Below are positions 3,136-63,446 of a DNA stretch of 64,000 nucleotides, in pieces. A program made the translations under genes and the position numbers. Source of the stretch: Phoronis australis (taxonomy: Eukaryota > Animalia > Phoronida); contig NMRA01000268.1 of NCBI GenBank assembly GCA_002633005.1, positions 287,982-351,981 of the forward strand, read 5' to 3'. Position 1 is the stretch's first letter; every line of letters starts with the position of its first letter. Under the pieces are notes generated by a model. The model had not been told where the DNA came from. It made no database searches and saw nothing but the letters and a program-made list of their open reading frames with translations.

Positions 3136-4031
3136 GAGGACTTAACTTCTCACTCGTTTATATTTGTTTTTCAAATAAGCATAGCAGCAATGTTGACACA
3201 CGTGAGTCTAACGGAAAAATTCAATTGTCTTCACGGTAAGCTACAGCATAGCGCATGAATTCTGCACGCATTTATCCCGAATTCAGCCATCACGCGGAGA
3301 ACGTGATCATGACCATTTGTCGAGTCAGAGAGGTTACTGCTATTATTATTTTAGTAAAGAATTCCCCCGGGACTACGTGGGCACAAAATACTAAATGCAT
3401 GGGGCTACACAAAACCCATACAAGGGGTTTGGGACTTAACATGCACTCGCAGTAACGAATGGAGATGCTACATGTACATGCCGTCAGCTGCAGAAGCGAA
3501 CTTATCGAAATTTTCTGTTCCACGAAAAGTGTGGTGCATGAATCCACGGAGTAACGATACATGAGTAGTGAGTCAAGATGCGATGGCTATTTTTAGAGCG
3601 AATTAAGTATATCCAGCTGTGATGAGTTTCATGGAGTCCCCCAGCCATGTAAACATCACTGTGAACGCAAGTAGAGGGTCTCGTTGGTTCGTCTTAACTT
3701 CAGGCCACTAAATAGTCTAAGTCTTTACTCACCACGGTTAAGTCGTTGATGGGACATGATTCGGAGTAATAAATTGGACTGCAAAAATTTCCATGCCATA
3801 GGAGTTAAAGGAGTTCGTTTGATTGACAAATATGAGAAATTATGGAGTTTGTCAGAACTCAGTGAATAAGATGCCAAAACAACGGATTACTGTACACACA
3901 TATCTAGATGTTACTTTTATTAGCCTGGTGCACCATCACGGTATGTTACCACAGATACAAAACTGGCAATGGAGAATACCGCAACTCATGAGCCAAGACA
4001 ACTCATGAGCCAAGACTACTGCACACATTAC

Positions 4032-4384
4032 CTGCATCAGTTCATCTTCAAACTTGAATGCCCCTCCCCCTGTTGCACACACTGTATCAGCCAAGCTGGG
4101 GAAGTGTTTTGCCTTGGCCATCTCAATGAATGCATGCATATCATTGGTTGGAAAGCGTATGAAGTGAAGTGTGCCGTGACGTCCGCCCAAATACTGTTCC
4201 CTCATTTCCAGATGAACGTCCCTGATACCTGTCTTGCCATAAGCAGTGTTGAGTGTCAGGTATTTACGAATGATCTTCACTGTCTCCAGCTCTTGCTCTT
4301 CCTCAAGTCGGTCCAAGTCCAGGGGCTCAAAGTAAATGAGTTTGGTCAGCGTGCCCCCAATGTCCATGCCCCACCACGGGAAGG
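4032..4384 (-). CDS. PANK: Pantothenate kinase (type II), major N-terminal catalytic exon (353 nt); downstream exons lie left of the window
   Basis: Encodes [21 protein letters not shown]...[12 protein letters not shown]...[10 protein letters not shown]...[11 protein letters not shown], typical eukaryotic PanK motifs; bounded by acceptor ttttccag and donor CAG|gtaatg. Confidence 0.95.
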
Positions 4385-4909
4385 CTGGAAAACAGTTACA
4401 GGAGTCGCTCATTTTGAGAACTGGTTATCAAAATATGGGACATCTTTAAGTGACTAATGCCAGAAAATAAAATGTAGCTGTAGATGGTATCGTGACAAAG
4501 TGTTTTTGGAAAACAATAACAACGCTGTCTACCCACTGTGGGCAATTGTGAAAAGGAAGGAAAAATTTACTTATTTAATTTTTGGATAAACTCTCTTCTA
4601 AGCCTATTAACATACCTTAATTACATTCTAGATTACTTAAATGTCTGAAGAAAATAATGCCATGCCAGCCTCGCCAACTGTCACAAAGACTGTGTATCTT
4701 CTTCACCTATTTACCACACAACATACTAGACAAAAGAATTTTTCTTCTTTAAATTTCTCAGCAGAAATGAAGATTAAGAAAATGTCAGTCACTCTATTAC
4801 TAGCTTGGCTTATACTGTGCAGATGTCGCAAAACAGCATTTGATATTTAAGTACTTTACATATTGTGTGAAGTTAGAGAAGAACTGCTGTAAATCAGTAA
4901 ATGTAACTC

Positions 4910-18276: not shown

Positions 18277-18428
18277 TGTTGTAGATGTGCTTCCGGTGAA
18301 TTATATGAGCCTCTGTTAGCTACTCGCTAACGGGCAATTGCCTATTAGCTGAATGGTTAGCACGCTTGCCGGTTTTATGGGGGTCGCGGGTTCGATCCCC
18401 GAGTCGGGTGATCTCCGCTATTACTACA
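18277..18428 (+). mobile_element. Solo LTR of the tRNA-like TRIM
   Basis: 152 bp, TGTTGTAG...TACTACA, reverse complement of the array LTRs; 4-bp TSD GTTT on both sides. Confidence 0.92.
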
Positions 18429-18596: not shown

Positions 18597-18672
18597 CTTG
18601 CCGGTTTTATGGCCATGGCCATGGGGGTCGCTGGTTCGATACCCGTGTCGGGTAATCTCGGCTATTACTACA
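18597..18672 (+). mobile_element. Degenerate 3' half LTR of the same TRIM
   Basis: cttgccggttttatgg...ggttcgatacccgtgtcgggtaatctcggctattactaca matches the LTR 3' half with a small insertion. Confidence 0.8.
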
Positions 18673-26785: not shown

Positions 26786-27560
26786 ATGCCACACTGTTGC
26801 TGCGTACCAGAATGTACATCGGCTCACGCACGCTTTGGGAGTACCTTTGCATCGCTTTCCGATGGATGACACACTTAATTCGCCGTACTTGGCTCGTTCG
26901 TGTGAAGAACGCAGCGTTACCTGTCCACGCAACGTACAAAGCAGTGAAGAATTACCGTGTGTGCGGCAAGCAATTTCTGCCCTCCGGTTACGAAAGGGAT
27001 TTGTACTCTGAACTGATGAAGGTCCCTGCGAAACAACGCCTGAAGAAGGATGCCATTCTGTCTGTGTTGATTCCCGGCAGTGCCCCGTCGCCACCCCCGA
27101 GAAGTGCGTTTTTAAAGCGAGAAGCCTCGCGAGCTGTGGCCAGTACAGTGACTGGAGCCAGTGGAGGCACTTCATCTACTGTCACCCATGCCTCCGAATG
27201 TACCCCAGAGCGTGCAATTCCTGGAACCAGTAGTGATTGCCCTGTGCTGTTTTCTCCAGCCCAGAGCCTCTAAGCAGCCCTGCAACGATACTGAGTAGTG
27301 GGAGTGATTACAGGCCCAGTTCGACACCCAGTGAAGAGGACAGTTTGTCGTTCAGTGAACAGATCGGTGAGCCAAACTTTGATAAGTTTATCGTGGACTT
27401 GTCTATTTAGAAGGTGCCAGGTGTGTGGCGAGGGAGTCACACGACACGATGTAAGCAGTTTGGGTGCTCAGGTCACCATCCAGTGGGAGTGTGTCGCGGG
27501 ACACTCTGGCAAGTGGGACAGTTGTTCCTCTGTCCGTGGTATGCCGGAGGTCCACTTAAC
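26786..27560 (+). pseudogene. Frameshifted THAP-domain transposase N-terminus
   Basis: Across frames: MPHCCCVPEC...LHRFP...RRTWL...RVCGKQF...RLKKDAI (THAP pattern, His replaced by Gln), then CQVC...WECVAGH..WDS; no DDE core remains. Confidence 0.75.
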
Positions 27561-27862
27561 CATGTCCAGTAGTGGCTTGGCCTCGTCGAACTCTGAACAG
27601 CACAAGCATTCCATTGAGGTAGGCATAACAACGCACACAGTGCATTTGCACCAAGATGTGTCACCACGTCTGTCCTCAGTAGCCGCCTCGTTTCTCTCAA
27701 CAGCTGCCTGTGCCTGTGCGTACTCTGCCTCGTTATACTCGGGCTCAAACATGTACCCACCCACTGAATGTCCGTGAAAAAATTCCTCGTCACCACTGCT
27801 GTGAACAAGGTCTCCGTCACTCACACTACTGTCACTGTGATACGGGTCACCGACTCCAGCCA
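27560..27862 (-). pseudogene. Truncated KolX-like / P2X7-ballast-like cysteine-rich ORF
   Basis: YMFEP...RRGDTSWCKCTVCVVMPTSMECLCCSE fits the WCxCxxC...ECxCCxE zinc motif of P2X7-ballast-like proteins. Confidence 0.75.
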
Positions 27863-28751
27863 TTTTCAGCTTACAACACACTAAACAATCCCTAAATCCA
27901 ACGTAGTTGAGTTCTCTACTAACCTATCTTGCCGCAGAATACTCGCCGATGAAAAGTGGTGGCGACAATTGTTGAAAAACAGCACAAAACAAAAGTAGAT
28001 AGAATAGATTCGCACGGTAAAGTCAACGCAAAACCAAGTGGCGGGAAACGCTTCCCTCCTAAAAACGTCACTTCCGGAGTAGCGGACGAGTAATTAATAA
28101 AGTTACGAAAAGCTGTAATTAAATGGAAAATATGTCTAGGATAACCAACCCACCTTATTTTGGCTCAAAATGACATGGAAAAAGGTTGCCTTTGCCTTTA
28201 AAGTGTCGGAAAAAAACAGTCGTCTTCCAACGTCTGCTTTCATATTTCACTTTGAAATTCCTGCACCATCCATAATACCGATTAGGGTTTTTTGTGTACT
28301 TTGCCTGATGTTTTCTCACCAGGTCTAACAAATGATATGCTCCCCGTCCCTACACTAGGTCACTTAGTAACTATCACTACAATCCTTGCCTTCTCCAGAA
28401 TAATTGCCAGTTCCATTAATACCTTGTCATGTTGCCACCTATATCTACCCTGCGACAGAGCTGTCCTGATAACATGTCTCAGTGGACACCTGTTCTCTGT
28501 CAGACCCCATCTCATCTGCACAAGTTAGACAGTGTTTGTAATAGGTCGTACACGGACCTAAGTAAAACCTGTATTTTGAATGGTTCCATTCTCCATAGTT
28601 CAGACCTCGTTAACTTCCTGCTGTCTGTCCTTGTCCAAGTGCCCTGGACTCTTCTTCGCACCTTCTAATAGCCCGTTGCACCATTTGTCTTCTTGCCATT
28701 TTTCAGTAGCTTTCAAAAGACTTACATTGTGTATTTTTCTCTGTTATGCAG

Positions 28752-29790: not shown

Positions 29791-31765
29791 TTTTTATGCG
29801 CCCACATATTTATATGTGGACGCATTATGCCGTCATCTCCGTCCGTCCGTCTGTACGGGCGGCGTCCGTCCGGCGTCTGGTGTCCGGCGTCCGCTGCTCT
29901 TTCTCCAAAACCCTTTGACATATGTTCATGAAATTTGGCACATATGTTCCATTTATGAATGGGACGGCATGTGCGAACTTTCGGACGGATCCGACTACCG
30001 GTGTGCCCCCTAGTGGCAATTTTAGTTTTTTACGCTTACCTTTGTATCTTCAAAAGTCCTGAACGGATTTTCATGAAATTTGGTATTAGGCACCTATTAG
30101 TGAGGTGACGCTATCCTGCCGTTTTCAGATGGATTCGACATAGTTTGCGCCACCTAGTGGCCATTTTTAATGTTTTCGAGTCTGTTTTTGTGCGTCCACC
30201 CCTCTATCAACCAAACTGCTCAAAGAATGATTGTGAAAATTGGCATGTTTATGCTTACTATGTAGAGGACGGTTGACCATGATTTTCCGATGATTTCGAC
30301 CACTGTGGCGCCTCCTAGTGGCAGTTTTGTTTTTTTTGCGCCTATGGCTGTAACTCCTAAACCGTTCACAGGATCGTTAGGAAATTGTGTAAGTATATTT
30401 ATATGATGTTAACAACGGAAGATGACGACTTTTGGATGGATCCGACTACCAGTGTGCCCCCTAGTGGCAATTGTAATTTTTTTACGCTTACCTTTGTATC
30501 TTCAAAAGTTTTGAACGGATTTTCATGAAATTTGGTATGTAGGCACCTATTAGTGAGATGACGCTATCCTCCCGTTTTCAGATGGATTCAACATAGTTTG
30601 CGCCACCTAATGGCCATTTTTAGTGTTTTCGAGTCTGTTTTTGTGTGTCCACCCCTCTATCAACCAAACCGCTCGAAGGATGATTGTGAAAATTGGCATG
30701 TATATGCTTACTATGTAGAGGACGGTTGACGATGATTTTCAGACGATTTGGACTACTGTGGCGCCTCCTAGAGGCAGTTTTGTTTTTTTTGCGCCTTTGG
30801 CTGTATCTCCTAAACCGTTCGCAGGATCTTTACGAAATTTAATAAGTGTGTACATATTATGTTAAAAACAGACGATGACGACTTTTGGACGGATCCGCCT
30901 ACCAGTGTTCCCCCTAGTGGCAATTTTATTTTTTTACGTTTACCTCTGTATCTTCACAAGTCCTTAATGGATTTTCATGAAATTTGGTATATAGGCACCT
31001 ATTAGTGCGATGACGCTATCCTCCCGTTTTCGGATGGATTCGACCTAGTTTGCGACACCCAGTGGCCATTTTTACTGTTTTTGAGTCTGTTTTTTGGCGT
31101 CCACCCCTCTATCAACCAAACCGCTATAAGTATGATTGTGAAAATTGGCATGTATGTTCTTACTATGAAGAGGACGGTTGACGCTGAATTTCCCATGACT
31201 TTGATTACTGTGGCGCCTCCTAGTGGCAGTTTTTTTTTGCGCCCATGGCTGTATCTCCTAAACCGTTTGCAGGATCTTTACTAAATTTAGCAAGTGTATT
31301 TATGTGATGTTGACAACGGACGATGACGACTTTAGGATGATTCTGACTACCGGTATGCCTCTAGTGGCAATTTTAGTATTTTACATTGACCTCTGTATTT
31401 TCATAGGTCTTCAGGTGTATACTTTGTGTTACTTCGTGACTATGAAGGAAAAGTTCCAAGTAGAAATTTGTTTCTGGCATTCTAATGCTGTGCTAATCTC
31501 GTATGTTGGTAAATTTGTTTTTAATTCTATGTTTCTGTGGTGCTTTAAGCAACTGATGTATAGGATGTGCTTGTATTATGAAGATCACTCACATTTTGCC
31601 CCTAGCCTATTGAGGAGACAATGACCATGCCTTTCCATTTTGCAAAGTAAAACATACTACATATATGCCCTCTACTGGTCACTTTATGGTACCAATAAAC
31701 AACCCTAGAAGGATACCGTATGCGGTGCAATTGTGGGCACATTTCAACGCTCTGCGTTGCTCTTG
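29791..31765 (+). mobile_element. HINE-like element, copy 2, with about 452-bp internal higher-order repeat
   Basis: Same terminal structures as copy 1; repeat units restart near 29986, 30438 and 30890. Confidence 0.85.
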
Positions 31766-38677: not shown

Positions 38678-39730
38678 TTTTTATGCGCCCACATATTTAT
38701 ATGTGGACGCATTATGCCGTCATCTCTGTCCGTCCGTCCGTCCGGGCGGCGTCCGCTGCTCTATCTCCAAAACCCTTTGACATACGTTCATGAAATTTGG
38801 CACATATGTTCCATTCCTGGGACGGCATGTGCGAACTTTTGGACGGATTCGACTACTGGTGTGCCCCCTAGTGGCAATTTTAGTTTTGTACGCTTACCTT
38901 TGTATCTTCAAAAGTCCTGAACGGATTTTCATGAAATTTGGTATGTAGGCACCTATTAGTGAGATGACGCTATCTTCCCGTTTTCAGATAGATTCGACAT
39001 AGTTTGCGCCACCTAGTGAGTCTGTATTTTTGCGTCCACCCCTCTATCAATCAAACCGCTCAAAGGATGATTGTGAAAATTGCTGTGTATGTTCTTACTA
39101 TAAGGAAGACAGCTGACAATGATTTTCAGACGATTTGGACTACTGTGGCGCCTCTTAGTGGCAGTTTTGTTTTTTTTTTCGCCCAATGCTGTATCTCCCA
39201 AACCGTTTGCAGGATCTTTACTAAATTTAGCAAGTGTATTTATGTGATGTTGACAACAGACGATGACGACTTTAGGATGATTCTGACTACCGATATGCCT
39301 CTAGTGGCAATTTTAGTATTTGCCTCTAGTGGCAATTTTAGTATTTTACATTGACCTCTGTATTTTCATAGGTCTTCAGGTGTATACTTAGTGTTACTTC
39401 GTGACTATGAAGGAAAAGTTCCAAGTAGAAATTTGTTTCTGGCATTCTAATGCTGTTCTAATCTCGTATGTTGGTAAATTTGTTTTTAATTCTATGTTTC
39501 TGTAGTGCTTTAAGCAACTGGTGTATAGGATGTGCTTGTATTATGAAGATTACTCACATTTTGCCCCTAGCCTATTGAGGAGATAATGACTATGCCTTTC
39601 CATTTTGCTAAGTACAACATACTACATATATGCCCTCTACTGGCCACTTTATGGTACCACTAAACAACCCTAGAGGGATACCGTATGCGGTGCAATTGTG
39701 GGCGCATTTCAACGCTCTGCGTTGCTCTTG
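38678..39730 (+). mobile_element. HINE-like element, copy 3 (one internal unit)
   Basis: Same termini; highly similar to copy 2, including its 3' unique segment. Confidence 0.85.
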
Positions 39731-47200: not shown

Positions 47201-47330
47201 TGCTCAAGCTACTCGTGGTGACTAGTTCATGCCTTGCACAGGTTTGAATTCAACAAAGATAATGTAGGCAATAACAACAACAAATAGCAAGATGTGTGCC
47301 CTTAATTAGCCAGACTATGAAGATACTTAC

Positions 47331-47525
47331 AAGCTAGGGTATTCCACACGTATAACCCTGTGGGGCCTGTAATAGTCTCAATTGGACGCGTTGCCAGGTT
47401 GATGATTGCCAAGAATGAGCCAACCAAACCCCATACTATACCAAGGGCAGCGAACACAATGGTGCATACCCATAGCCCAAAGTTCAACAGACCAACATTT
47501 GAAGCAGCCGTGGCCTGGTCCTCGA
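47331..47525 (-). CDS. CLRN: Clarin exon 3 (TM2 and loop)
   Basis: GLLNFGLWVCTIVFAALGIVWGLVGSFLAIINLATRPIETITGPTGLYVWN, containing the clarin P.ETi.GP.GLY.WN motif; catttcag acceptor, T|gtaagt donor. Confidence 0.92.
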
Positions 47526-49075
47526 CTGAAATGAGACGTATGAAACAGTGAGATGAGGTATCGGGTACAGATGACTGGTGTGTGGACCAAGCAAGCCCCG
47601 GCAGAGTGAAGGGTGCAAGTCGCGATCTAAGGCAGCAACGAGGATAGCCATGGACCTGGAACACATAGAGATGCACACTGGCACTATACATACAAGCAAC
47701 AGAAATGAGGATAGCCTGGAACCAAGTAATGCACTGGTACTATACACACAGGCTGTAGATAAAGATGGGTAGAACAGACAGTGGTGTGCAATCAGTGATG
47801 GAAGACAGTGTGTGTGGAGTGAATGTGAATAGTATTTAACACACGTCTTGCTTTCCATATCTCTGCTAATTGACTGTTAGCACATAGACCACCAACTTAC
47901 ACAAAGCTGCGATGTCTGTTACTCCTTAGAGGTGGTGCCTGTTGAATTAACCCATCTTACTTCTGGTGTTTACGTCTACTGACTATGGTTTGTGCTGTTA
48001 GAGCTTGAATTTTGCACTTCCTGAATTAATGTCGAAATTACTCATGACACCAAGAATTCTACTACTGAAAGATGGTTGAATGGCCTTTCAAGGCCGAAAT
48101 GCTTTCTTTCATATTGCTCGGAAGTACAATAGGTACCAGAATTTCTTGTCCCAATACAGTAACGAAAAGCTAAGATTAGCACTTCCACGCGAAATTTATG
48201 AGAAAATATCAGAGCTCCAAAGCCTTGATCTATGATGTAGTGAAGCCCAGCACAGAGCCATGTTTAAAAATTTTTAGCCATGTTTGAAGTGCCATGGCTT
48301 TTCAGCTCTACATTACATTTTAGTGCGTTTCAAGTAGAATGGATCCGTCATGAACCAAATAAAAATCACACTAATGCGAAATCACACATTCCTTCAAGGT
48401 ATCTGGTTAGTTTGGAATACTAATAGCCAACTCTAAGCTTGAGCTTGGCCAGCAGTTGTGGAGTTGGATAGATGTTCAATAGAGTACTGGTTCAAAGGTT
48501 TCAGCTAAAGAAGCCACTGTGTTAATATAGCACAAGGCTAAAGAGCAGCATGGAAGTTGAGTGCCATTGACTAAGACAGGAAAGGATATTGAGTCGTCAG
48601 TCTACCAACAGGTGGCACACAAAGTGGAAGGTACCAGTACAAGAGAGAAGAGTAATATTCAACACAGATAAAAAAGTCTACGTTAAACAAGTTGTTAGGT
48701 AAGTTATAGGTAATAAGATTGAGTGAAAAATGCAGTTAACCTCGAACGTAATAAAAATGTTTCTCCACAATTCAATCACGCCAAACCAAATGCAATAGAA
48801 AAAGCTCTCACTGGTAGATCACGTTAATAAGAGAACAAAGAAACAAAGGCAATACAAACAGATAGAACAAAATTAATTTTAATACAGATAAATGCAGTAG
48901 TTAAAAGTCATACCAGAAAGTAAAAGAAAATCCCAGGACAAACTATCCCTTAAAATTTAGAAACTAAATGTATAGGATTCAAATGTCAGAAAAGTACAGA
49001 AAACAAAAGAATCGTATTAGTTTTGTTCTGCAGCTTAACAGGCAAGTTTGTCCATAGGATTAGGTTGTTAGAAAC

Positions 49076-49186
49076 CTGAGCTGTTTGCTTCCAAAGTATT
49101 AAGGATGCCTTCCAATTCCTTTATACGCTCATCTTCTGAGGTCAGCCCACTCCAGCCACACAGATTGTTGCCAGCATCACAAACAA
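49076..49186 (-). CDS. CLRN: Clarin exon 2, symmetric 111-nt exon in extracellular loop 1 (possible cassette)
   Basis: VCDAGNNLCGWSGLTSEDERIKELEGILNTLEANSS; acceptor ttctcaaacag, weak donor G|gtttct; phase 1-1 fits both neighbours. Confidence 0.65.
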
Positions 49187-50219
49187 CTGTTTGAGAATAA
49201 AACAGAACAGGCATGCAAACAGTGATGAGAAATGAGTGAAACAGTAAAAAACTAAACTCAATGACATACAGAAACAGAACTGTGGAACGTGCATTGAGGA
49301 AAACGAGGTACATTGAGACATTAAGACAAATTTTTCGACCAGGGCACACCAGTGTTGAACAGTTCATACTCGTTGCATGTTTTTGATTTACTGAAACAAT
49401 AAATATATAAAGCATGCTAAAAGCAGCTATAAACCTATCTTCCATCATAGAAATCAACCTTTGATTTAGATCCCTTGCTGTTATGAAATTGGTCTCAAAA
49501 TAGTTCCTTAGTCAAATTTGAGGTGATTTCAAGACATCATAAGAAATGACACTTTGCTATGCTCTGAAAATAAGCTCAGCAATTTGGCTTGTCATTGCGT
49601 GTCATAGTATGAGCAAGTATGGTCACAAAAAGTAAAGAATTGTCAGTTCTTTGCAAACACAGATGTCACTCATCATCCGAGTAAGAAACAAACTGAAATC
49701 ACCTTTACAGCAGATAGTGGTGGTCTATATCAAAGGTTCTTGGACAGATCTAAAGCTGCTTTGATACCTTTTTTTAATTTGACAAATTAACAGGAAATTT
49801 GGCTTGTTATGTCTTAGACTGGTGCAGAGTATATTCAGTCAGAGAATTTTTGAGGCTCCATAGGGTGGCATCATGCTGCTTTAATGATTTTGAAGTTGTA
49901 TTTTTGTGGTGCAGTTCATAACAAAAACAGCAGATTCTTGTTCTACGCTTACTTTTATACAGAATTTTACAACAATCTCCTCATTACAATTTTTGACATC
50001 TCAATGCACCCAACTTTCATGTACTCCATGTTACAGCATGTGGTCTGTGCCCACAGAGAATGAAAAGAAACAATTGACAGGAACTCAACTACAACAGGAT
50101 TGTTCCCAATTGTCCAGACAGTTTTGATACAAGGTATATATTTCTCTGCAAGATTCAAACACAACATAACAGAAAAGGAGAAACTTTGCTCAAACTTGAT
50201 CAATAAAGACATTATATAC

Positions 50220-50388
50220 GGTACTAGTACATATATACAAAAATTATATACTAGTACATATATACATACTAGTACATATATACATATAAACTAGTACATA
50301 CATACATATATACTAGTACATACATACATATATACTAGTACATATATACATATATACTAGTACATACATACATATATACTAGTACATC
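50220..50388. repeat. Low-complexity tandem repeat, about 18-22-bp unit (tactagtacatatatacata)
   Basis: Directly visible repeated units. Confidence 0.88.
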
Positions 50389-52332
50389 AGGAAACAACAC
50401 ATACACATCATTAATTTGAGCACTAGCAGAAAAAATGAAAGAAGTGACAAGAAGATTTAAGTGTAGAGTGGCATCCATGAAAGCATGATTTTAACCATGA
50501 GTTGAAATTAGGCATACATGCTGTTATTGGCTTTGAAATTGAGAATCTAGCACTCAATAGAACTAAAAATAAAGTTATGTTGAGCACTGTTAACATAATA
50601 TGACTATTACCTTGAGACACCCCATTTCAGTCAACGGCGAGTGTCGAATGGTCTAATTTATTTTGTTTCAAAATAAGACAAGTTAACACTTCTTATTTTT
50701 CTATGTTTGTACTTTGGAGGAAATGGAGCTCATAGAGATTAGCTTTGGGAAATAATAAACCACTTCATTCTTGTTTTATCTCACTTTAAGTAGGCAATTT
50801 TTGCTCGGCCAAAGCAGCGCTCAATATAAGTTTAAGCATATGTAAGTTTATCGATTCTGGCTTTCGCAGTCATGCTGTGAAAGTATGGCATGCTGTTACA
50901 CTGAAACTGACCATTTAGATTATGGTAAAAGTACTTCAGTTCGGGACACAATATAGCAGACAAGTGAAATTTCATTTTGCGGTATCACAGTTCTCAAACA
51001 GACTATCATCAAGTTTTCCGGATATTATATTTTAGCTTGGCTACTGCAGCTTAATTTCCACAGTATAACTATCACAAATGACATCTGGTACTCACAACAA
51101 TGTAGTGAACCACTGAAAAATACAGAGACCACAATTTATTAGCAATTATTTGTGTTCAAAACTGAAAAAATTAAAATGCGGAAGATTTCGCAGACCTAGG
51201 TATAAATTCTAAAAGTGGACAAGAGAAAATAAACCAGAGGATTGCCAGAACAATGATTATTTGAGAAAAGAATTGTTTGCAATGATTCTGAAAAGCAAAA
51301 TTAGTCAATTTACGGTACATGAAAAATCCAAAAATATTTAGTGTTTTGGTAAAATGCCTATTACCTTGGAAATCAGTTTCAAATGGCATTTGTCGAATAT
51401 TTGATTTAATTTTGAGCCATCAGCGTAACAAAATCAAGTTACTTAATTAATAAGGACAGTTAACACTGACTTCTTGTTTTTCATGAATACTGANTGTACT
51501 TTGGAGGAAATGGAGCTCATAGAGATTAGCTTTGGGAAATAATAAACCACTTCATTCTTATTTTATCTCACTTTAAGTTGGCAATTTTTGCTCGGCCAAA
51601 GCAGCGCTCAATATAAGTTTAAGCATTGTAAGTTTATCGATTCTGGCTTTCGCAGTCATGCTGTGAAAGTATGGCATGCTGTTACACTGAAACTGACCAT
51701 TTAGAATACGGTAAAAGTACTTCAGTTCGGGACACAACATAGCAGACAAGTGAAATTTCATTTTGCGGTATCACAGTTCTCAAACAGACTATCATCAAGT
51801 TTTCAGGATATTATATTTTAGCTTGGCTACTGCAGCTTAATTTCCACAGTATAACTATCACAAATGACATCTGGTACTCACAACAATGTAGTGAACCACT
51901 GAAAAATACAGAGACCACAATTTATTAGCAATTATTTGTGTTCAAAACTGAAAAAAATTAAAATACGGAAGATTTCGCAGACCCAGGTATAAATTCTAAA
52001 AGTGGACAAGAGAAAATAAACCAGAGGATTGCCAGAACAATGATTATTTGAGAAAAGAATTGTTTGCGATGATTCTGAAAAGCAAAATTAGTCAATTTAC
52101 GTACATGAAAAATCCAAAAATATTTAGTGTTTTGGTAAAATGCCTATTATCTTGGAAATCAGTTTCAAATGGCATCTGTCGAATATTTGATTTAATTTTG
52201 AGCCATCAGCGTAACAAAATCAAGTTACTTAATAATGACAGTTAACACTGACTTCTTGTTTTTCATGAATACTGAGCTTGAAATGGAGCTCAATTAGTTT
52301 CAGGTATGTTTGGCCTTATCAATCACTTTTAA

Positions 52333-52676
52333 AAGGACATGCAATAATCAGGTTAACGACCAAAAAAGATTTCGGGATTATTGTTGGATGGGATGGACTT
52401 CTTTAAGTTATTAGTCATAACCAGAGCTACAAAACCAAAAAATTCACGTTTTTTGTGTTTTTATAACAAATGCCCGGTTCTCACCGATGTCTGCCAGACA
52501 ATCACTGAAATCAAGGTGGTGACTTTATCAATTGAATATGTTTAAAATACTCTACCATTTATCGAGTGAGGTTTAGTTCCACCAACTTAGCCGAAAACCG
52601 ACTGTCGGAGTTGCAGGTTCCATTCCACATTGACGCTGACCTCAGAAATATCAATTTTCTCACTAATAATGTCCCT
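52333..52676. mobile_element. Possible Kolobok-type MITE
   Basis: TTAA-AAGGACAT ... ATGTCCCT-TTAA termini. Confidence 0.45.
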
Positions 52677-54176
52677 TTAACTTTCTTGTTTATTTTACTT
52701 GAAAGTTGGTCACAGTGCTGAGATCACAAAATAGTAGATACATACATAAAGTAAATACATGATAGGAGTAGAAGCTAAACCTATTTCAAAAGATCCAAGA
52801 TTTACAAAAAATGATCTAATATGTATACACTAAAGTCACAGCTAGGTGAACTAAGCACAGGGCAATGATAGATCCTTCAACTCTACCCAGGGTGCAACAT
52901 AATGAGCTGCAGGTTGCATCTATGACCTGAAATTTGGAAATGTGAGCTAAGATTTTAGACAACTCGTTATAGTCACTCTGGTGCAAATTGGGCACTCCAA
53001 CTCCAGCGAGCAGAGTAATTGTTGTATCTCCTGAAAATGACCAACAATGTTTTTTTCTATTCTGTAGTCACCACGCTTGATCAACTTGGCACCTGTCACT
53101 ATGTGAGTGCAAGCTGCATTTCGGAACTGCGAGCTGGGATTTAGGCCAGGTGGAAAAAAATGACCATACTGTCAAGGGATGCTACAAGTTGTTGTACTGA
53201 CAGACGAACTGCTCAATGGCTCCAGATGGTGACCAACATCTGTAGTCATTTTAGCTAAATTCAGACAATCATTAATAAGGGCCCCTGCACTGACCGATGA
53301 ATTAACACAGAGAGCACTGACCGTTGAACTTACTGAGTAATAACCAAGTCAATGACTGTTTCACACAGGTTCAACAGCCTTTAGTGCAGAAAGCGCAATT
53401 TTCTAATAATCAATAAAAATAGCAAAACCTTCTATCCAAGGAGAAAGGGGTTGTCACTTGGAGAGGCACATTCCGTTGAGATATAGGGCACAGAACAAAC
53501 GAAACACAACAAGCTTAGTCCACTGTCTCAAATACCAGTAAACTTCACTTTCCCGCAAAAATATTGAGTAAGTCAATCGCGTGGTGGATATCTCACCTGT
53601 TCGATTTCTCAAGCCCAGATCTTTACAGAGTCCAGGGCAAATGGGCTGCCTGAATGCTTGATACATTAGTTATTGATATATTATGCGACATTAATCAACA
53701 AGAATCTGTTCAAAGGTCTTTTAAACACGTTTTGCTAATTTTTAGACTTGCTGAAGAGAATGAACTGAATGAGTCGAAAAGCGTAGATAATTCATACATG
53801 CTCAGGACCACAGTCGAAGTGCGGTGAAAATGCATAAACAAAAAACAAATTCAAAAGTGTAAAGTATGGTTTAGTAGTATTTTTCATCACGAATTTGAAT
53901 AAAATATCAAAAGTGACCTCCGTCTCAAAGTTACGAAGTTGGTTGTGTTTTTACAACTGAAAACAACTAGGCTGAAGTAAAGTTTTATTAGTGGTCAATT
54001 GACAATGTACACAGATCATACTATGGGGATATTTATGTATTCGGATCTTATGCTGATAACTATACTGAAATCTTTTGTGCGCTACAGGACCCTTTGCTTT
54101 TTAAAATGCTGTGCGTTCCATCTTTACTTCACCAGGCTCTGCTGGGGGTATATATCTGTGATAAGCCACCCTAACA

Positions 54177-54390
54177 CCTTTCTTATATTGCGAGTAGGAG
54201 ATGGAAGCATATCAATAAGCCATATACAGTTTATCCTTTAATAACAACCCTTTCTTATAATGCGAGTAGGAGATGGAAGCATATCAATAAGCCATATACT
54301 GTTTATCCTTTAATAACAACCCTTTCTTATAATGCGAGTAGGAGATGGAAGCATATCAATAAGCCATATACTGTTTATCCTTTAATAACA
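54177..54390. repeat. 71-bp tandem repeat, 3 copies, ending at an N gap
   Basis: cctttcttataatgcgagtaggagatggaagcatatc... repeated; only one diverged unit in the duplicate block near 55372. Confidence 0.85.
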
Positions 54391-56654
54391 NGTTGTTGTA
54401 CTGACAGACGAACTGCTCAATGGCTCCAGATGGTGACCAACATCTGTAGTCATTTTAGCTAAATTCAGACAATCATTAATAAGGGCCCCTGTGCTGACGG
54501 ATGAATTAACACACAGAGCACTGACCGTTGAACTTACTGAGTAATAAACAAGTCAATGACACAGGTTCAACAGCCTTTAGTACAGAAAGCGCAATTTTCT
54601 AATAATCAATGAAAATAGCAAAACCTTCTATCCAAGGAGAAAGGGGTTGTCACTTGGAGAGGCACATTCCGTGGAGATATAGGGCCCAGAACAAACGAAA
54701 CACAACAAGCTTAGTCCACTGTCTCAAATACCAGTAAACTTCACTTTCCCGCAAAAATATTGAGTAAGTCAATCTCGTGGTGAATATCTCACCTGTTCGA
54801 TTTCTCAAGCCCAGATCTTTACAGAGTCCAGGGAAAATGGGCTGCCTGAATGCTTGATACATTAGTTATTGATATATTATGCGACATTAATCAACAAGAA
54901 TCTGTTCAAAGGTCTTTTAAACACGTTTTGCTAATTTTTAGACTTGCTGAAGAGAATGAACTGAATGAGTCGAAAAGCGTAAATAATTCATACATGCTCA
55001 GGACCAGAGTCGAAGTGCGGTGAAAATGCATAAACAAAAAACAAATTCAAAAGTGTAAAGTATGGTTTAGTAGTATTTTTCATCACGAATTTGAATAAAA
55101 TATCAAAAGTGACCTCCGTCTCAAAGTTAAGAAGTTGGTTGTGTTTTTACAACTGAAAACAACTAGGCTGAAGTAAAGTTTTATTAGTGGTCAATTGACA
55201 ATGTACACAGATCATACTATGGGGATATTTATGTATTCGGATCTTATGCTGATAACTATACTGAAATCTTTTGTGCGCTACAGGACCCTTTGCTTTGTAA
55301 AATGCTGTGCTTTCCACCTTTACTTCACCAGGCTCTGCTGGGGGTATATATCTGTGATAAGCCACCCTAACACCTTTCTTATATTGCGAGTACGAGATGG
55401 CCGCATATGAACAAGCCATATACTGTTTATCCTTTAATAACAACCAATTGCATTTCATGTATCAAACAATTATTCAATAAAATGTTTGGCAAAGAAAGAA
55501 AATAAATTAAAATATATTGAGTGCGGCACTTGTGGACCTTAATTAATACAAAATGAAATACGATGGACAGAAACAATTGTTCACATCATAAAAAAGAGTG
55601 GAAATTGTTTTTATTTTATGAAACCTGAAATATTCACTTCTGTACCCAACCATGTTTACTTACAGACCAGTAGTTATACAATCAACTGATGAGCATATTA
55701 AACAGTAGTGGTAAGAATAGGAAAGTTTCTCAGAATCGACAACAGGTGATGCCGTCTTACGCTACCAGACAAAATTTGTGTGCAGCCGAGGTGGCTTCGC
55801 CTCATTCGTGTGACCTTCAAAACTTTTTTAGCAACACCAAACAAATATTTCTGTGCAGCCTCACTTACATTAATTTTAATTAAATTCAGCTATATAGAAG
55901 AATCAATTTCACTGTATTGAAATAAATTTTGATTCCATGTTTTTCTTTAGCAATGATATCGGCGACAAACCGTTGAATCGTTGCTTCACTATTACACAGG
56001 GAAAAAGAACCTATTGATTTTCATCAAACCTGTTGCTAAGCTAAGCTTTTAACATATGTCAACATGACTGACAAACAGTTGAACTACAGGGTGGGCAGAG
56101 GAAGGAAATGTTTTGTAAATTCATAACTGATTCAGCACTGAGCCTGTAACTACCTGTTGTTATAGCTAGGTGGGGTCCATTCCAAGTAACTGGGTAGGTG
56201 TTGCAGAACATCTAAAATCCTGATTTTTAATGCAATGTCTATATGGGGTTTTACATCGTGTCGCATATATGCAGCGCCCTACTCACTAGCCTACATCGTA
56301 ATACATCCAATGATGCTAACGGTACTGAAGATGAATGCCACAAATTACAAACGTGTTTGCTCACGTCCTTTCATCATAGTGCAGTGTGCCGCTATATTAA
56401 AAAGTACAGACACAAGTTTACATGTCTACGTAACACTATGCTAAAAAACAACCGTTTCCTTCTTCAGTCCAATGAAAATCCCGCCTGTGTTAAACCTGGG
56501 AGTATTGGTACTATGTTAAACTTAGAAGAAATTGTAAACACTCAAGGAATTATGGGTAATTCTTTACCTGTCTCACACACGATATGGTGGACAAGTGAAT
56601 TTCATTTTGTCAAATTTCTCAATAAAAATGAAGATTAAGAAAAATTCAATAACT

Positions 56655-56865
56655 TGTTAGCCTGTTTGTATAGCGTAGATGTGATAAAACAACAGTGTTT
56701 AGCTTGTTCGTACTGTGTAGCTGTCATAAAACAACAGTGTTTAGCCTGTTTGTACTGTGTAGTTGTCATAAAACAAAAGTGTTTAGCTTATTTATACTAT
56801 GTAGATGTCATAAAACAACAGTATTTAGCTTGTTTGTACTGTCTAGATGTCATAAAACAACATTT
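56655..56865. repeat. 42-bp tandem repeat, about 5 copies
   Basis: tgtttagcttgtttgtactgtgtagatgtcataaaacaacag units; explains the repetitive ORFs at 56654 and 56695. Confidence 0.9.
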
Positions 56866-57139
56866 GGTTATGTTTCTATAAATTACAGCAAGGTAACCTG
56901 CCTTAGAAAATACTTGTGCAAAAACAGCTGGATCACCAGTACCCTAATGCAATGTGCAGACACATGTCCTCAACCTTAACTGCCATTATTCATGAGAAAC
57001 ATGTAATACCAGCATTATAACATCAAACAATGTAAAGTATGTTCATATCCTGGTACTAATCACAGGTGACTGGACAGACCAATTATTATTTCCTTTTTAG
57101 TAGCAACCAAGGGGTCACACGCATATAAGATTTCAAAAC

Positions 57140-58045
57140 CTGTGTTTGAATAACTAGCATGTATTTCAAGATTAGTTAAACGACATCAATTATTTAAAGC
57201 TCAGTAACATTTAGAAATCATTTCTTTTTAATACAAGCATGACAATGCGTAGCCTTGGTACAAAGCTGTATAAAAATATACAGCTTTGCACCGATGTGGG
57301 TAAAAAAGTGGCAAGATAAAATCTGACACAAAATTGGTGTCATTAAAAACTACAGTCTTCCTTGAGTAAACTAAATTATTTAACGGTGTTGGCAAAATTG
57401 GCGTTCTACCGTTATTCTGCTGCTAAAGTTGTGAAGCGATCTTTAGCGACGGATTTCGGCGCCGTGAAATTTTTAGAATTTTGATACCGAAAAATCAAAT
57501 TTCAGAAGAAATTTTGCTGCTGCCAAGCTATCATCATCACCCGAGAGATGTCGCAAAAATTTAGGAAATGGCGCGTGTGAGTGACACGAGCGTACTGTTT
57601 TCAAAACGACGAAATACTTTTCATTGTTAGAAAAGGCGGAGAGTTACACAAGAAAATGACGTTTATTGCATTGTTTTTCACTTAAACGGCTGTAACGGGA
57701 AAGGCGAGTGTTGGTTGACTCCCAGATTTTGCATGCACACCGTCCGGTTTTTAGCTTTACATGTTGATACAAGTTTCACGGCACGGTGACGAGCAGAACT
57801 ACCCAGGCTGTGTGCAATTTCGGGGTCTACAGAAGAAATACACACAGTGGGACCTAGCTGTATTTTGACGACAGTCTTCATACAGCTAGCTGGCTGGCTA
57901 GACAATGCGCAAAACATTAGAATATCATAAAGATATATGAAATGGCAACTCAAAATGTGCTTAGCCTCGAGAATCATTTATATTTGTTAGTTGCGTGGTA
58001 AATTTTTGCCAAGCGTGAGAAACGTTAAATGATAGTTTGCCTTAA
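57140..58045 (-). repeat. Second diverged copy of the 23264-24070 repeat family, ending at a TTAA
   Basis: Reverse-complement homology as above; terminus GATAGTTTGCC-TTAA. Confidence 0.75.
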
Positions 58046-58757
58046 AAATCTTGACATTTGGAGACAACAAGTGAAATATTGCACAAATATAGTGGCATCG
58101 TAAAATTGAAAATGTATAGAAGCGATTTTAGTTTCCAAATTGTAACTCAAGCGCCAATCTTGACCAGGATGCAACATAATCGATACAGTTAAACATAATA
58201 AATCATTTTGACAGCATAACTCTCACTATATAAGGTATACCACCACCTGTGACCAGGTTTAATACTTAATCCCTTAGCACAGATCAATATGCCAAGAATT
58301 TGGATGTTTGGGCTGAGATGATCGCACTCACAGGTTAACATCTCCACCCGTTAAACCAATAAAGATAACTACTCAGTGGTATCAAGTTCACTGAGCCGCT
58401 TTCACGCAGCTATGGTGAATAATCTGCATTCAGTGTTATAGTAAAATCTATCAAACAGTTTATTTGCTCATAAATATATTCTTGAAATTTTTTAAAAAGT
58501 GCAATTATGACAATTATTTTTGTTTGACATCGGTTAGAGTAGTCAAAATATTTCCTACCAAACTAAAATGGACCAGTAATGTAATTTAAACAATTTGAAT
58601 GTTGTAACAACAAAGATGGTAAGCTCACAATACAAACATGCAAAGAGCAATGCCAATCAAGTGTTTGGAAAAACATCTGGCATCTTCTACAAATGGTACA
58701 TTAACCAAATAAAAGAGCTATTATCACTTACTTTTATATTCTCCTCCTACTACAGTC

Positions 58758-58893
58758 AAGCGACCCATACATCATATTGCATGTTTTGGCACACTTTGCA
58801 TTATGGAAATACTATGGATGTCGTAAGCGACCCATACATCATATTGCATGTTTTGGCACACTTTGCATTATGGAAATACTATGGATGTCGTAA
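58758..58893. repeat. 66-bp perfect tandem duplication
   Basis: aagcgacccatacatcatattgcatg...ggatgtcgt present twice. Confidence 0.9.
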
Positions 58894-60421
58894 ATTCTTT
58901 ACAGAAACAAGACTTAGCTTTACGTAATTGCTGTTACAAAATCTTAACACCGAAAGCCATTGCTCTGACTGACCTTTAAAAAACACTACTTGTAAACCCT
59001 AGCCTTCGCACACAACACATTGCAGAAAACTTACTAACCATGTTATGGCCATAGTTTTTTGGTCACCAAATTGAAGCTTGTATGTTTGATATATTTACTG
59101 CTACAACATAGCTCTGTTCAAATGATGCAACGCCATAAAAACGAGAAAGTGTGGAACAAATATTGATGTCATTTATTTGTCAGATTATGCTTCATGTAAG
59201 AATTTATAAAAACATGCGATATTTAGGTCTGCCGATATTTAGTTCCGTCCAATATTTAGGTCCGTCCGATACTTAAGTAAATAATCTGTACAGCACACAA
59301 CAGAAAATTCTTAGTACTAATTTATTAGACAAAAACAAGTACAAACTCGGCACAAACACATTTGAATTGATTGACATTTTGTTGATACATAATCAGTCCA
59401 ATTTTAATTTTTAAAAATGCAATTATCATAATGCATTAGTTTCAGGGTTTGAATTTTACTTTCTTGCATATTTAACTGATAATACACTGAATTATTTCTA
59501 AACAAAACCAAACTCTGCATTGATGAGTTTGGTTAAAAGTGCAAAATTTGGTTGTTACTATTTGATCACTATTACTTCTTTGTCAAAAATCAAGTAAAGA
59601 CTGTACTCAACGCAGTATGCAAGAAGACTGGCAACATATGGGCTGTGAAAAATGTGGATGTTTTTGTGGCATAAATCAGTTCTGTAATAAGTATCTAACA
59701 TGCTGAGATCAAGTAAATCACTTCAATCAAGCATATGTTTTAACTTAAAGTGCAACATGTACATCATAGTCTACCAACCTGTAACCAGAATCTATGTAGA
59801 AAAGGCCATTGACATGTCTAATCTTCTTTCTTTTTTGAACTTCAGTATAATAAACTACGTAAAAATGGATTTCATCAACCATTTAATAAACTGGACATGC
59901 TGAAGTTATGTAACCTTGTTAATCTCACTTGTACGATGCATCGGTAGCATCCGACTTCTGCTACAAGTCGGATGCGTAGACATTAAAACACCACGCTCGT
60001 GACAGACATGTCATTTGCTTGATTTTTATTTCGATAAACAATGTCTTTCGAGAGATTTCAACAACTTCTCTAAAGCAAAATTTGCTCAGATACCAGCACC
60101 CTATTGCTAAAATACTTAAACCATATAACGCAGTGAAACCAACTCCTCTACTTTGTAGTGGATGATGTACAAACATGCTGAAAAAACCCTGTTGATTGAA
60201 GCATTGAAATTGGCCACCAGATGGTGTCCCATTTTGTAGCCTCAACGGTGATGCATATGAACACTATACAAAATGAAAATCAGAACAATGTCACAGTATT
60301 TGATTAGTATACTCAAGGAAATGATGCTTTCAACAACTTTAATTTTGCAACAGATACTATTTTGTTAACTTTTTAGTCAACATCATTCAGAAGGTGTAAA
60401 TTTGTATTTGTAACCCAACTT

Positions 60422-60567
60422 CGGGTAAAAGTGGAGTAAACGGGCCCCTCTTGAGAATGGCTGCCAGGAACCAGTTTTCACTGAGTAATGACAATGTCTG
60501 TTATCCAGAGTAAACTGGTTCCTGGTAGCCATTTTGAAGAGGGACCGATTTGATCCACTTGTACCCG
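60422..60567. repeat. Fold-back inverted repeat with about 56-bp arms
   Basis: cgggtaaaagtgga...aatggctgccaggaaccagttt pairs with aaactggttcctggtagccatt...tccacttgtacccg. Confidence 0.72.
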
Positions 60568-60628
60568 GCTTTGTACCAAAGCTAAGTTGTCATACGAAGG
60601 TAAGTAATAGACTCTGGTGTCAGTGTAA

Positions 60629-61939
60629 TGTAGTAATAGCCGAGATTACCCGACCCGGGGATCGAACCAGCGACCCCCATAAAACCGGAAAGCGTGCTAA
60701 CCATTCAGCTTATAGGCAATTGCCCGTTAGCGAGTAGCTAACAGAGGCTCATATAATTCACCGGAAGCACATCTACAACATTCCCCCCTTTCCTACGGAA
60801 TGGGCACGCGACAGGAAGGTGAACACCAGGATGTCTCGCATACAGGTCATCAACGTCCCTTGGTACCTTTACCACCACAACACAGGTGAACACAAGGTCG
60901 TCTCTCATACAGGTCCTTGACTCCTGGAACCTTCCACGCGCGCTGTCCCGAGGTCCGTGGGTACTAGTTGGCAGTGCTTCATCGGTAGATCATCCGTTTG
61001 CCGACTACGCCATTTGTTGTATTACCCGAGATTACCCGACCCGGGGATCGAACCCGCGACCCCCATAAAACCGGCAAGCGTGCTAACCATTCAGCTAATA
61101 GGCAATTGCCCGTTAGCGAGTAGCTAACAGAGGCTCATATAATTCACCGGAAGCACATCTACAACATTCACACCTTTCCTACGGAACGGGCACGCGACAG
61201 GAAGGTGAACACCAGGATGTCTCGCATACAGGTCATCAACGTCCCTTGGTACCTTTACCACCACAACACAGGTGAACACAAGGTCGTCTCTCATACAGGT
61301 CCTTGACTCCTGGAACCTTCCACGCGCGCTGTCCCGAGGTCCGTGGGTACTAGTTGGCAGTGCTTCATCGGTAGATCATCCGTTTGCCGACTACGCCATT
61401 TGTAGTAATAGCCGAGATTACCCGACCCGGGGATCGAACCCGCGACCCCCATAAAACCGGCAAGCGTGCTAACCATTCAGCTAATAGGCAATTGCCCGTT
61501 AGCGAGTAGCTAACAGAGGCTCATATAATTCACCGGAAGCACATCTACAACATTCCCCCCTTTCCTACGGAACGGGCACGCGACAGGAAGGTGAACACCA
61601 GGATGTCTCGCATACAGGTCATCAACGTCCCTTGGTACCTTTACCACCACAACACAGGTGAACACAAGGTCGTCTCTCATACAGGTCCTTGACTCCTGGA
61701 ACCTTCCACGCGCGCTGTCCCGAGGTCCGTGGGTACTAGTTGGCAGTGCTTCATCGGTAGATCATCCGTTTGCCGACTACGCCATTTGTAGTAATAGCCG
61801 AGATTACCCGACCCGGGGATCGAACCAGCCACCCCCCATAAAACCAGCAAGCGTGCTAACCATTCAGCTAATAGGCAATTGCCCGTTAGCGAGTAGCTAA
61901 CAGAGGCTCATATAATTCACCGGAAGCACATCCACAACA
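60629..61939 (-). mobile_element. Tandem TRIM (non-autonomous LTR retrotransposon) with tRNA-like LTRs, Helenus-like: 4 LTRs and 3 internal domains
   Basis: LTRs at 60629-60780, 61015-61166, 61401-61552 and 61787-61939 with TG...CA ends; 234-bp internal domains, 386-bp period; PBS TGGCGTAGTCGGCA; PPT GGAAAGGGGGGAA; TSD GTAA at 60625-60628 and 61940-61943. Confidence 0.93.
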
Positions 61940-62092
61940 GTAAAAACAGCATTCATCTAGCTTTCCATAAATGTGTACACAGGGGCATCTTACATGAAAA
62001 ATACTAAATACAGTCTGCCATATTGTAGGCCTAAATAGCTAACGAGACAAGGGCAAGGGCAAGGCATGGCATTTTTGTTTCCTTATACTTAC

Positions 62093-62327
62093 TCCATATT
62101 TCTTTTTCTCGCCCCTTTGTCCCTAAGCCAACATCAAACTCTTTTCCTCCGTGAAATAGACCAAAATGGAGCGTTCCATTTCCTTCATTCTTATTATCTT
62201 TCATCTTCACAGGCGTCGACTGGATCCAGTACTCAGTAGCCAGAGAAACCGATATCAACGCGATCCCAGCAACGCAAAAAATAAATGTCATAGTAATAAA
62301 AAAGCGTTTCTTTTTGTCCATCATCAT
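62093..62327 (-). CDS. CLRN: Clarin-family tetraspan membrane protein, exon 1
   Basis: N-terminal TM helix followed by SLATEYW and GTLHFGLFHG...G.G, the clarin/claudin-like first loop signature; donor A|gtaagt, phase 1. Confidence 0.88.
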
Positions 62328-63064: not shown

Positions 63065-63446
63065 TGTAGTAATAGCCGAGATCACCCGACCCGGGGATCG
63101 AACCCGCGACCCCCATAAAACCAGCAAGCGTGCTAACCATTCAGCTAATACGCAATTGTCCGTTAGCGAGTAGCTAACAGAGGCTCATATAATTCACCGG
63201 AAGCACATCTACAACATTCCTCCCTTTCCTACGGAACGGGCACGCGACAGGAAGGTGAACACCAGGATGTCTCGCATACAGGTCATCAACGTCCCTTGGT
63301 ACCTTTACCACCACAACACAGGTGAACACAAGGTCGTCTCTCATACAGGTCCTTGACTCCTGGAACCTTCCACGCGCGCTGTCCCGAGGTCCGTGGGTAC
63401 TAGTTGGCAGTGGTTCATCGGTAGATCATCCGTTTGCCGACTACGC
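63065..63446 (-). mobile_element. Truncated copy of the same TRIM (3' LTR plus internal domain, broken in the PBS)
   Basis: LTR 63065-63216 and internal 63217-63446 nearly identical to the array units; 5' LTR absent. Confidence 0.9.

Follow-up and report, generated by a model that had tools for sequence, protein, structure and literature searches.

How does a tandem array of small LTR elements come to lie inside a single target-site duplication (TSD): is it integrated whole as a product of reverse transcription, or is it enlarged after an ordinary insertion? We addressed this question at one locus of Phoronis australis, within a stretch of 64,000 nucleotides (hereafter the window; all positions refer to it). 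A preliminary description of this DNA had proposed a TRIM array in which neighboring units share LTRs, with a period of 386 bp and one TSD pair, and each of these features is borne out. The tandem-repeat finder TRF returned a period of 386 with 3.4 copies and 97% matches, and alignment resolves four LTRs (152, 152, 152, and 153 bp) that alternate with three 234-bp internal domains (L4I3). The whole array covers 60629-61939 on the minus strand. The span first given for it, 60781-61786, does lie within the array, but it runs only from the first to the last internal base. Flank comparison places GTAA at both array ends (left TSD 60625..60628, right TSD 61940..61943), and the chance of such a 4-bp flank match is 0.4%. 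The element sense is the minus strand, on which the PBS, the PPT, and the A and B boxes all lie, and a plus-strand orientation was rejected for this reason. Fusion of two nearby insertions was also rejected, as the TSD would be lost, and so was a tandem SINE or satellite mimic, given that TG..CA ends, a PBS, a PPT, a TSD, and a solo LTR were all found.

The units of the array, all on the minus strand, are numbered from the 3' end of the element. LTR L1 (60629..60780, 152 bp), the 3'-most in element sense, has A at alignment column 41 (60669) and two private changes (60689 and 60711), the second of which falls in the A box. Internal domain I1 (60781..61014, 234 bp; PPT 60781-60794, PBS 60999-61012) has one private change (60801). 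The shared LTR L2 (61015..61166) has C at column 41 (61055) and three clustered changes at 61018, 61022, and 61025 that form the altered end TGTTGTATTACCC. Two changes (61170 and 61172) lie in the PPT of I2 (61167..61400; PBS 61385-61398). The second shared LTR, L3 (61401..61552), also has C at column 41 (61441) and is free of private changes, as is I3 (61553..61786; PPT 61553-61566, PBS 61771-61784), in which a 32-bp internal direct repeat occurs with a spacing of 67. Together, L3 and I3 equal the consensus of the family in the window. Finally, L4 (61787..61939, 153 bp), the 5'-most LTR in element sense, has A at column 41 (61827) and four changes absent from L1-L3 (61830, one extra C near 61832, 61846, and 61933). 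The altered end of L2 and a degraded PPT had been described as adjacent. Both are present, but they stand at opposite ends of L2, and the altered end faces the PBS of I1. At 61015-61029, the three changes make the end of L2 the reverse complement of the other end of the LTR (7 nt), and this 7-nt reverse complement is followed by a copy of a nearby 8-mer. The change is possibly either templated or an assembly error.

The identification as a TRIM holds, as the unit is short and non-coding and has two LTRs with TG..CA ends, a PBS, and a PPT. A monomer (LTR-I-LTR) would measure 538 bp, its longest ATG frame is 56 aa, and its LTR begins with TGT and ends with ACA. The LTR ends were set by family contigs that switch to unrelated flanks exactly at 60629 and 60780 (in contig set X1, 24 contigs diverge before 60629 and 35 behind 60780). 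The PPT is a 14-nt purine run that directly abuts the next LTR, and the TSD is 4 bp long in both complete insertions in the window (GTAA for the array, GTTT for a solo LTR). The PBS is 14 nt long, lies 2 nt from the 5' LTR, and matches the tRNA-Ser 3'-end template given in PMC3299991.

The LTR carries an A box (TRGCY..YGG) at sense position 70 and a B box (GGTTC) at 113, 43 nt apart. In L3, these parts are the A box at 61473-61483, a T4 run at 61453-61456, and the B box at 61431-61440, all on the minus strand; the A box of L1 is mutated. The B-box search pattern extends beyond GGTTC. The box pair occurred in 14 of 200000 shuffles, and all five matches in the window are LTRs of this family. The LTR-internal promoter of Pol III type that had been proposed is thus present as a pair of motifs, from which Pol III transcription is predicted. 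ARAGORN at default settings reported 0 tRNA genes in the LTR, a lowered threshold gave only a poorly paired fold, and an Rfam search yielded chance-level matches and none to tRNA.

By its anatomy, the element fits the animal Helenus TRIMs (PMC10886601). We compared it with parts 1, 10, and 11 of the 11 parts of the supplement of that paper and with Data S1 (parts 2-9) in passages, and added motif searches. The Table S1 rows examined include none with an LTR of 152 and an internal domain of 234, and the PBS, LTR-start, LTR-end, and A-box motifs gave 0 matches in the supplement, where line wraps can hide motifs. The element is therefore probably an uncatalogued, new Helenus family.

Other copies of the family occur in the window. 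A solo LTR (18277..18428, plus strand) has C at column 41 and its own 4-bp TSD, GTTT; a rearranged LTR fragment with A at this column (18621..18672, plus strand) lies about 190 bp from it. A further copy, here called copy B (63065..63446, minus strand), consists of one LTR with C at column 41 and an internal domain that ends inside the PBS, and has neither a second LTR nor a TSD. In shape, copy B resembles a cDNA before second-strand transfer, or the result of a deletion. It is situated about 740 bp upstream of a host exon and 1.1 kb from the array. Dozens of contigs have other flanks at identical LTR ends, indicating a dispersed family. Summed contig depth, which is not a copy number, reaches thousands of times the flank depth for the LTR and hundreds of times for the internal domain; the family is present in very high copy in its host. 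Searches of metagenome contigs and of viral contigs for the family returned 0 matches each.

What, then, do the LTRs say about the origin of the array? As reported earlier, the outer LTRs share a variant that the inner ones lack, namely the A at column 41. This column is the sole site at which a variant is common to two of the four LTRs, grouping L1 and L4 against L2 and L3, and no other LTR or internal change is common to several units. The closest match is not between the outer LTRs: 6 columns distinguish L1 from L4, compared with 3 for L1-L3, 3 for L2-L3, 5 for L3-L4, 6 for L1-L2, and 8 for L2-L4. Across the family, C accounts for 22-54% and A for 46-78% at column 41 (seven tallies, from DNA contigs and RNA reads), figures that are to be read with contig depth sums being rough and those at 61827 being biased by a nearby indel.

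Such a pattern could in principle arise by purely local expansion, in which unequal sister exchange turned a monomer into a dimer and then a trimer, and the middle LTR underwent a fresh A-to-C change at the dimer stage. The TSD would be kept, as observed, and unequal exchange is the usual published explanation (PMC4558846, PMC6934838, PMC13570524). We simulated this series from monomer to trimer with unequal sister exchange and point mutation only, at uniform timing and with no conversion (40000 runs at each of three rates). The outer/inner class made up 60% of the informative LTR sites and was found in 63-67% of the simulated arrays with exactly one informative LTR site. Because local growth alone yields this class so often, the class is not diagnostic. 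The full observed pattern, however, appeared in 3-6% of the local-only runs, and the mutation, a transversion, would have had to arrive again at a letter that is widespread in the family. We regard purely local expansion as quite improbable. The rarity of the pattern, together with the transversion to an allele already common in the family, argues that the inner LTRs probably derive from a different template than the outer ones.

Our preferred reading, to which we assign a probability of about 45%, is that a normal one-element insertion acquired the inner units when it recombined with a different family member. The starting point would be an integrated monomer with a 4-bp TSD and with A in its two LTRs, into which family DNA carrying C was brought by homology. 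The incoming DNA may have been cDNA, or a circle with a single LTR, that paired at the PBS or within the internal domain, as Tf1 cDNA does; alternatively, gene conversion by one of the dispersed copies may have supplied the C. Another such uptake, or unequal exchange, would then have produced the order A-C-C-A. Donors of C are plentiful, since both alleles of column 41 are common in the family. One candidate, copy B, lies only 1.1 kb off, yet its four other variants are missing from L2 and L3. There is precedent for both the route and its traces: in fission yeast, Tf1 cDNA recombines into resident Tf2 elements, and the resulting tandems have a single LTR in the middle and sequence of the resident on the outside (PMC11042837); of 97 tandem TRIM copies in sugar beet, 73 retain their TSD, which the authors read as recombination (PMC13570524).

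The distribution of private changes bears on the order in which the units arrived. Of the 12 private changes, 6 fall in the outer LTRs, which make up 305 of the 1311 bp (23%); for this excess, P=0.039 at equal rates, P is 0.12-0.24 if LTRs change three times faster than internal domains, and P=0.11-0.25 when outer and inner LTRs alone are compared. The unit formed by L3 and I3, next to the 5' PBS, has no private changes (P=0.015-0.08 for this unit, and 0.09-0.38 for some adjacent unit being unchanged), as would be expected if it was the last to arrive. The excess in the outer LTRs and the unchanged L3 and I3 lean weakly toward a later arrival of the inner units. Against recombination into a resident copy, I1 has only one private change, whereas a resident of the age of L1 and L4 would be expected to have more. 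As no other change is common to several units, the units could also have joined at about the time of insertion, which would suit the integration of a ready-made multimer as well.

That last scenario was the one advanced in the preliminary description, which took matching outer LTRs around different inner LTRs as a sign of reverse transcription of a multimeric template. According to it, reverse transcription itself yielded a trimer, either because the template was a read-through transcript of an older array or because the enzyme switched between RNAs packaged together, and this trimer was integrated whole, with outer LTRs that were identical at insertion and diverged later. A single TSD around the array agrees with this, as does the position of the sole informative site, which groups L1 and L4 against L2 and L3 and falls within U5, on the 3' side of the predicted R. 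The remaining changes are each confined to one unit, so that the units look of similar age. The one T4 in each LTR is the sole run of three or more T on the sense strand, and could give rise to read-through multimers if leaky; for Cassandra, transcripts of 2-5 units have been detected (PMC7215508). The criterion itself, a TSD combined with alike outer LTRs, was published by Sabot and Schulman (PMC1950507). The part of the argument that stands is that column 41 sets the outer LTRs apart from the inner ones, whose template was probably different. The step from there to a reverse-transcribed multimer is weakened by its dependence on one site whose two letters are both common in the family and whose class is not diagnostic, and by the outer LTRs differing at more columns from each other than L3 does from either of them. 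Moreover, recombination with cDNA of the Tf1 type likewise ends with the resident LTRs flanking newly arrived LTR sequence (PMC11042837). A read-through template would need an older mixed array, and copies the contrast between A and C but does not create it. Under this scenario the inner sequence should be no younger than the outer LTRs, yet it has fewer changes, although this weighs little. Among Triticeae elements, 2 template-switch complexes were counted against 20 recombinant ones (PMC1950507). On balance, we find integration of a ready-made trimer rather unlikely.

The array and its number of units are known from the assembly. The public runs listed are five contig sets and three sets of raw RNA reads, none of them recorded as long-read, and among the pieces aligned to two one-unit stretches none covers either stretch in full. 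The outer junctions are present, with the letters of the window, on short-read contigs covering 60517-60654 (X1 and X2) and 61903 onward (X2 and X3), a support that is not independent since these contigs come from one sample that may be the source of the assembly. The depth of the junction contig is 36, against 40-46 for the flanks (X2), which hints that both haplotypes carry the insertion, bearing in mind that contigs can join paths.

The true insertion might be only a monomer (or a dimer) whose two LTRs have A, its middle having been filled during assembly with consensus-like reads from other copies. Both the period of 386 bp and the array of 1.3 kb are longer than a short read, and the family is one of very high copy. 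L3 and I3 equal the window consensus, the three-change end of L2 is not visible in the contig tables of X1 and X2, and A-C-C-A is the order that such a mosaic would be expected to show. The window also contains four single-N gaps, two of them beside tandem repeats, which suggests a short-read assembly. On the other hand, there is no N within or beside the array, L2 and I2 have changes of their own and are not plain consensus, and the inner LTRs lack the four variants of copy B, from which stray reads would most likely have come. No conclusion follows from the missing L2 haplotype, as Logan contigs drop rare variants. Comparable arrays have been verified elsewhere, with PCR in maize (PMC4717578) and with long reads in rice (PMC11899658). 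We consider an assembly mosaic distinctly unlikely. The single-N gaps are at 6047, 23131, 51494, and 54391; that at 54391 abuts a 72-bp tandem repeat, and that at 6047 lies in a region of 53-bp satellite.

The anatomy of the element and the standard LTR cycle together suggest how it would multiply. Initiation by Pol III is expected about 7 nt ahead of the A box, in the tRNA-like part of the 5' LTR. The RNA would read through a leaky first T4 and stop at a later one, so that each end would carry an R of about 35-40 nt. The T4 between the A and B boxes (61453-61456 in L3) is the sole run of at least three T on the sense strand; three T3 runs occur on the antisense strand of the internal domain. 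A Gypsy helper, which the 4-bp TSD and the 3'-end tRNA primer suggest, would reverse-transcribe the RNA from a tRNA-Ser primer and integrate the product with a 4-bp TSD. The earlier proposal that a tandem is needed for a template with complete LTR information finds no support. In the standard LTR cycle, a monomer RNA with a short R is sufficient for reverse transcription to restore the two LTRs. The predicted R of about 35-40 nt would be enough for this without any tandem, and Cassandra is reported to manage with an R of 18 bp (PMC10886601, introduction).

RNA reads from three runs give a mixed picture. Over the internal domain, element-sense reads supply 65-66% of the depth in X7 and X8, while the two strands are nearly balanced in X6; over the LTR, the depth is mostly antisense. 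Family reads thus lie on both strands, mostly embedded in other transcripts, and 58-70% of the aligned reads continue into unlike sequence. One weak pile-up of read starts was seen (6 molecules in X7, at 61533). These three runs do not show Pol III transcripts or multimers, and libraries of this kind cannot reveal a Pol III start. It is possible, though we doubt it, that Helenus arrays in this host are mobile or self-growing units that grow via reverse transcription and not by crossing-over. The leaky T4 in the tRNA-like promoter of each LTR could yield monomer, dimer, and trimer RNAs, or cDNAs that end at the PBS, like copy B, could dock onto resident copies. In that event, this young, high-copy family, possibly in a host lineage without recorded Helenus, would allow these two routes to be separated genome-wide.

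The array lies in an intron of a gene that is expressed and spliced and is likely of the clarin family. It begins 153 bp inside this intron, which measures about 12.9 kb, behind a coding exon at 62093..62327 (minus strand, splice donor 62093/62092) of this likely clarin/claudin-family gene. Splicing of the exon is documented by 54 spliced reads in X8, and spliced reads connect 62093 to an exon near 49190 within a gene span of 47302-62327 on the minus strand. A further exon (47302-47739) matches Pfam Clarin-2 with E=1e-5, below the curated cut-off, and the match of 62093-62327 is weak.

Several other features were observed in the window. A palindromic 146-bp element with 67-nt arms that are 81% complementary (60422-60567) occurs at about 40-50 times the flank depth in contigs and is likely a MITE-type repeat. 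A long-period tandem (453 bp, 3.2 copies, 88% matches) occupies 29977-31403, with related sequence near 39000 and 46600, and a frame at 27468-27923, in a GC-richer stretch, has a weak match to P2RX7_C (E=9e-5) and is possibly part of a DNA transposon. The region 4029-4385 is a pantothenate kinase exon (Pfam Fumble) whose best named relatives, from spiralian invertebrates, are 70-74% identical; in a tree of 133 columns with 29 of the 120 listed relatives, it falls near annelid sequences with support of 0.26-0.31.

This locus adds a probable new family to Helenus and a further case to the TRIM arrays, in a normally spliced-out intron. Shared-LTR TRIM arrays with a TSD are already well known, the tandem arrangement having been described in plants (PMC4717578), bivalves (PMC6934838), and tapeworms (PMC4558846), and the idea that a TSD with alike outer LTRs marks a reverse-transcription product has likewise been published (PMC1950507). 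Whether tandem LTR structures originate by post-insertion recombination or by multimer insertion is stated to be open (PMC11899658, PMC7215508), with the rice study leaving both routes open (PMC11899658), and a single array with one informative site cannot settle this question. A young family of very small, high-copy elements in which diagnostic alleles are common nevertheless lends itself well to testing it. The literature searched, mostly main texts available without subscription and not including Repbase, contained no genome-wide test of outer versus inner LTRs for Helenus, and the available part of a meeting report (PMC12859917) held nothing further on arrays.

Among known systems, animal Helenus/TRIMp3 (Kojima, 2024; PMC10886601) is alike in its tRNA-like LTR boxes that do not form a functional tRNA, its PBS for a tRNA 3' end, its PPT, its 4-bp TSD, and its many solo LTRs, and the 538-bp monomer falls within its range of 311-1263. 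Tandem arrays were noted there too, for LTR-11_DR of zebrafish, and Pol III transcription of the Helenus LTR is unproven in the available text of that study also. Judged by eye, the nearest among the families compared are Helenus-2/3_PiNo. The tRNA-Ser type of PBS is, however, absent from Fig. S2 of that work, and several animal Helenus LTRs have an oligo-T after the B box, whereas the element of the array has its T4 between the boxes (PMC10886601). The TA-TRIMs (Gao et al., 2016, PMC4717578; biv-TRIM of bivalves, PMC6934838; sugar beet, PMC13570524) share the LnIn-1 structure, shared LTRs, and one TSD, with reported sizes from L3I2 to L58I57. Boxes of tRNA type are not reported for these families in the available texts, in contrast to the LTR of the Phoronis australis array.

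Arrays of Cassandra (Kalendar et al., 2020; PMC7215508) are also tandems of a TRIM with a Pol III promoter, with multi-unit transcripts, and their authors weigh both recombination and template switching. Cassandra is a plant element with a 5S rRNA promoter, whereas the promoter here is of tRNA type and its use by Pol III is predicted. The template-switch complexes of Sabot and Schulman (2007; PMC1950507) resemble our array in having a TSD around a multi-LTR complex, and the outer-LTR test applied to them is the one put forward in the preliminary description. Their outer LTRs are highly alike, whereas the present array has four LTRs and an outer pair that is not the most alike. Finally, integrase-independent recombination of Tf1 cDNA was shown for an autonomous element of fission yeast, whereas we infer the route for the array of Phoronis australis; the products are alike, being shared-LTR tandems with resident sequence outside and new sequence inside (PMC11042837).
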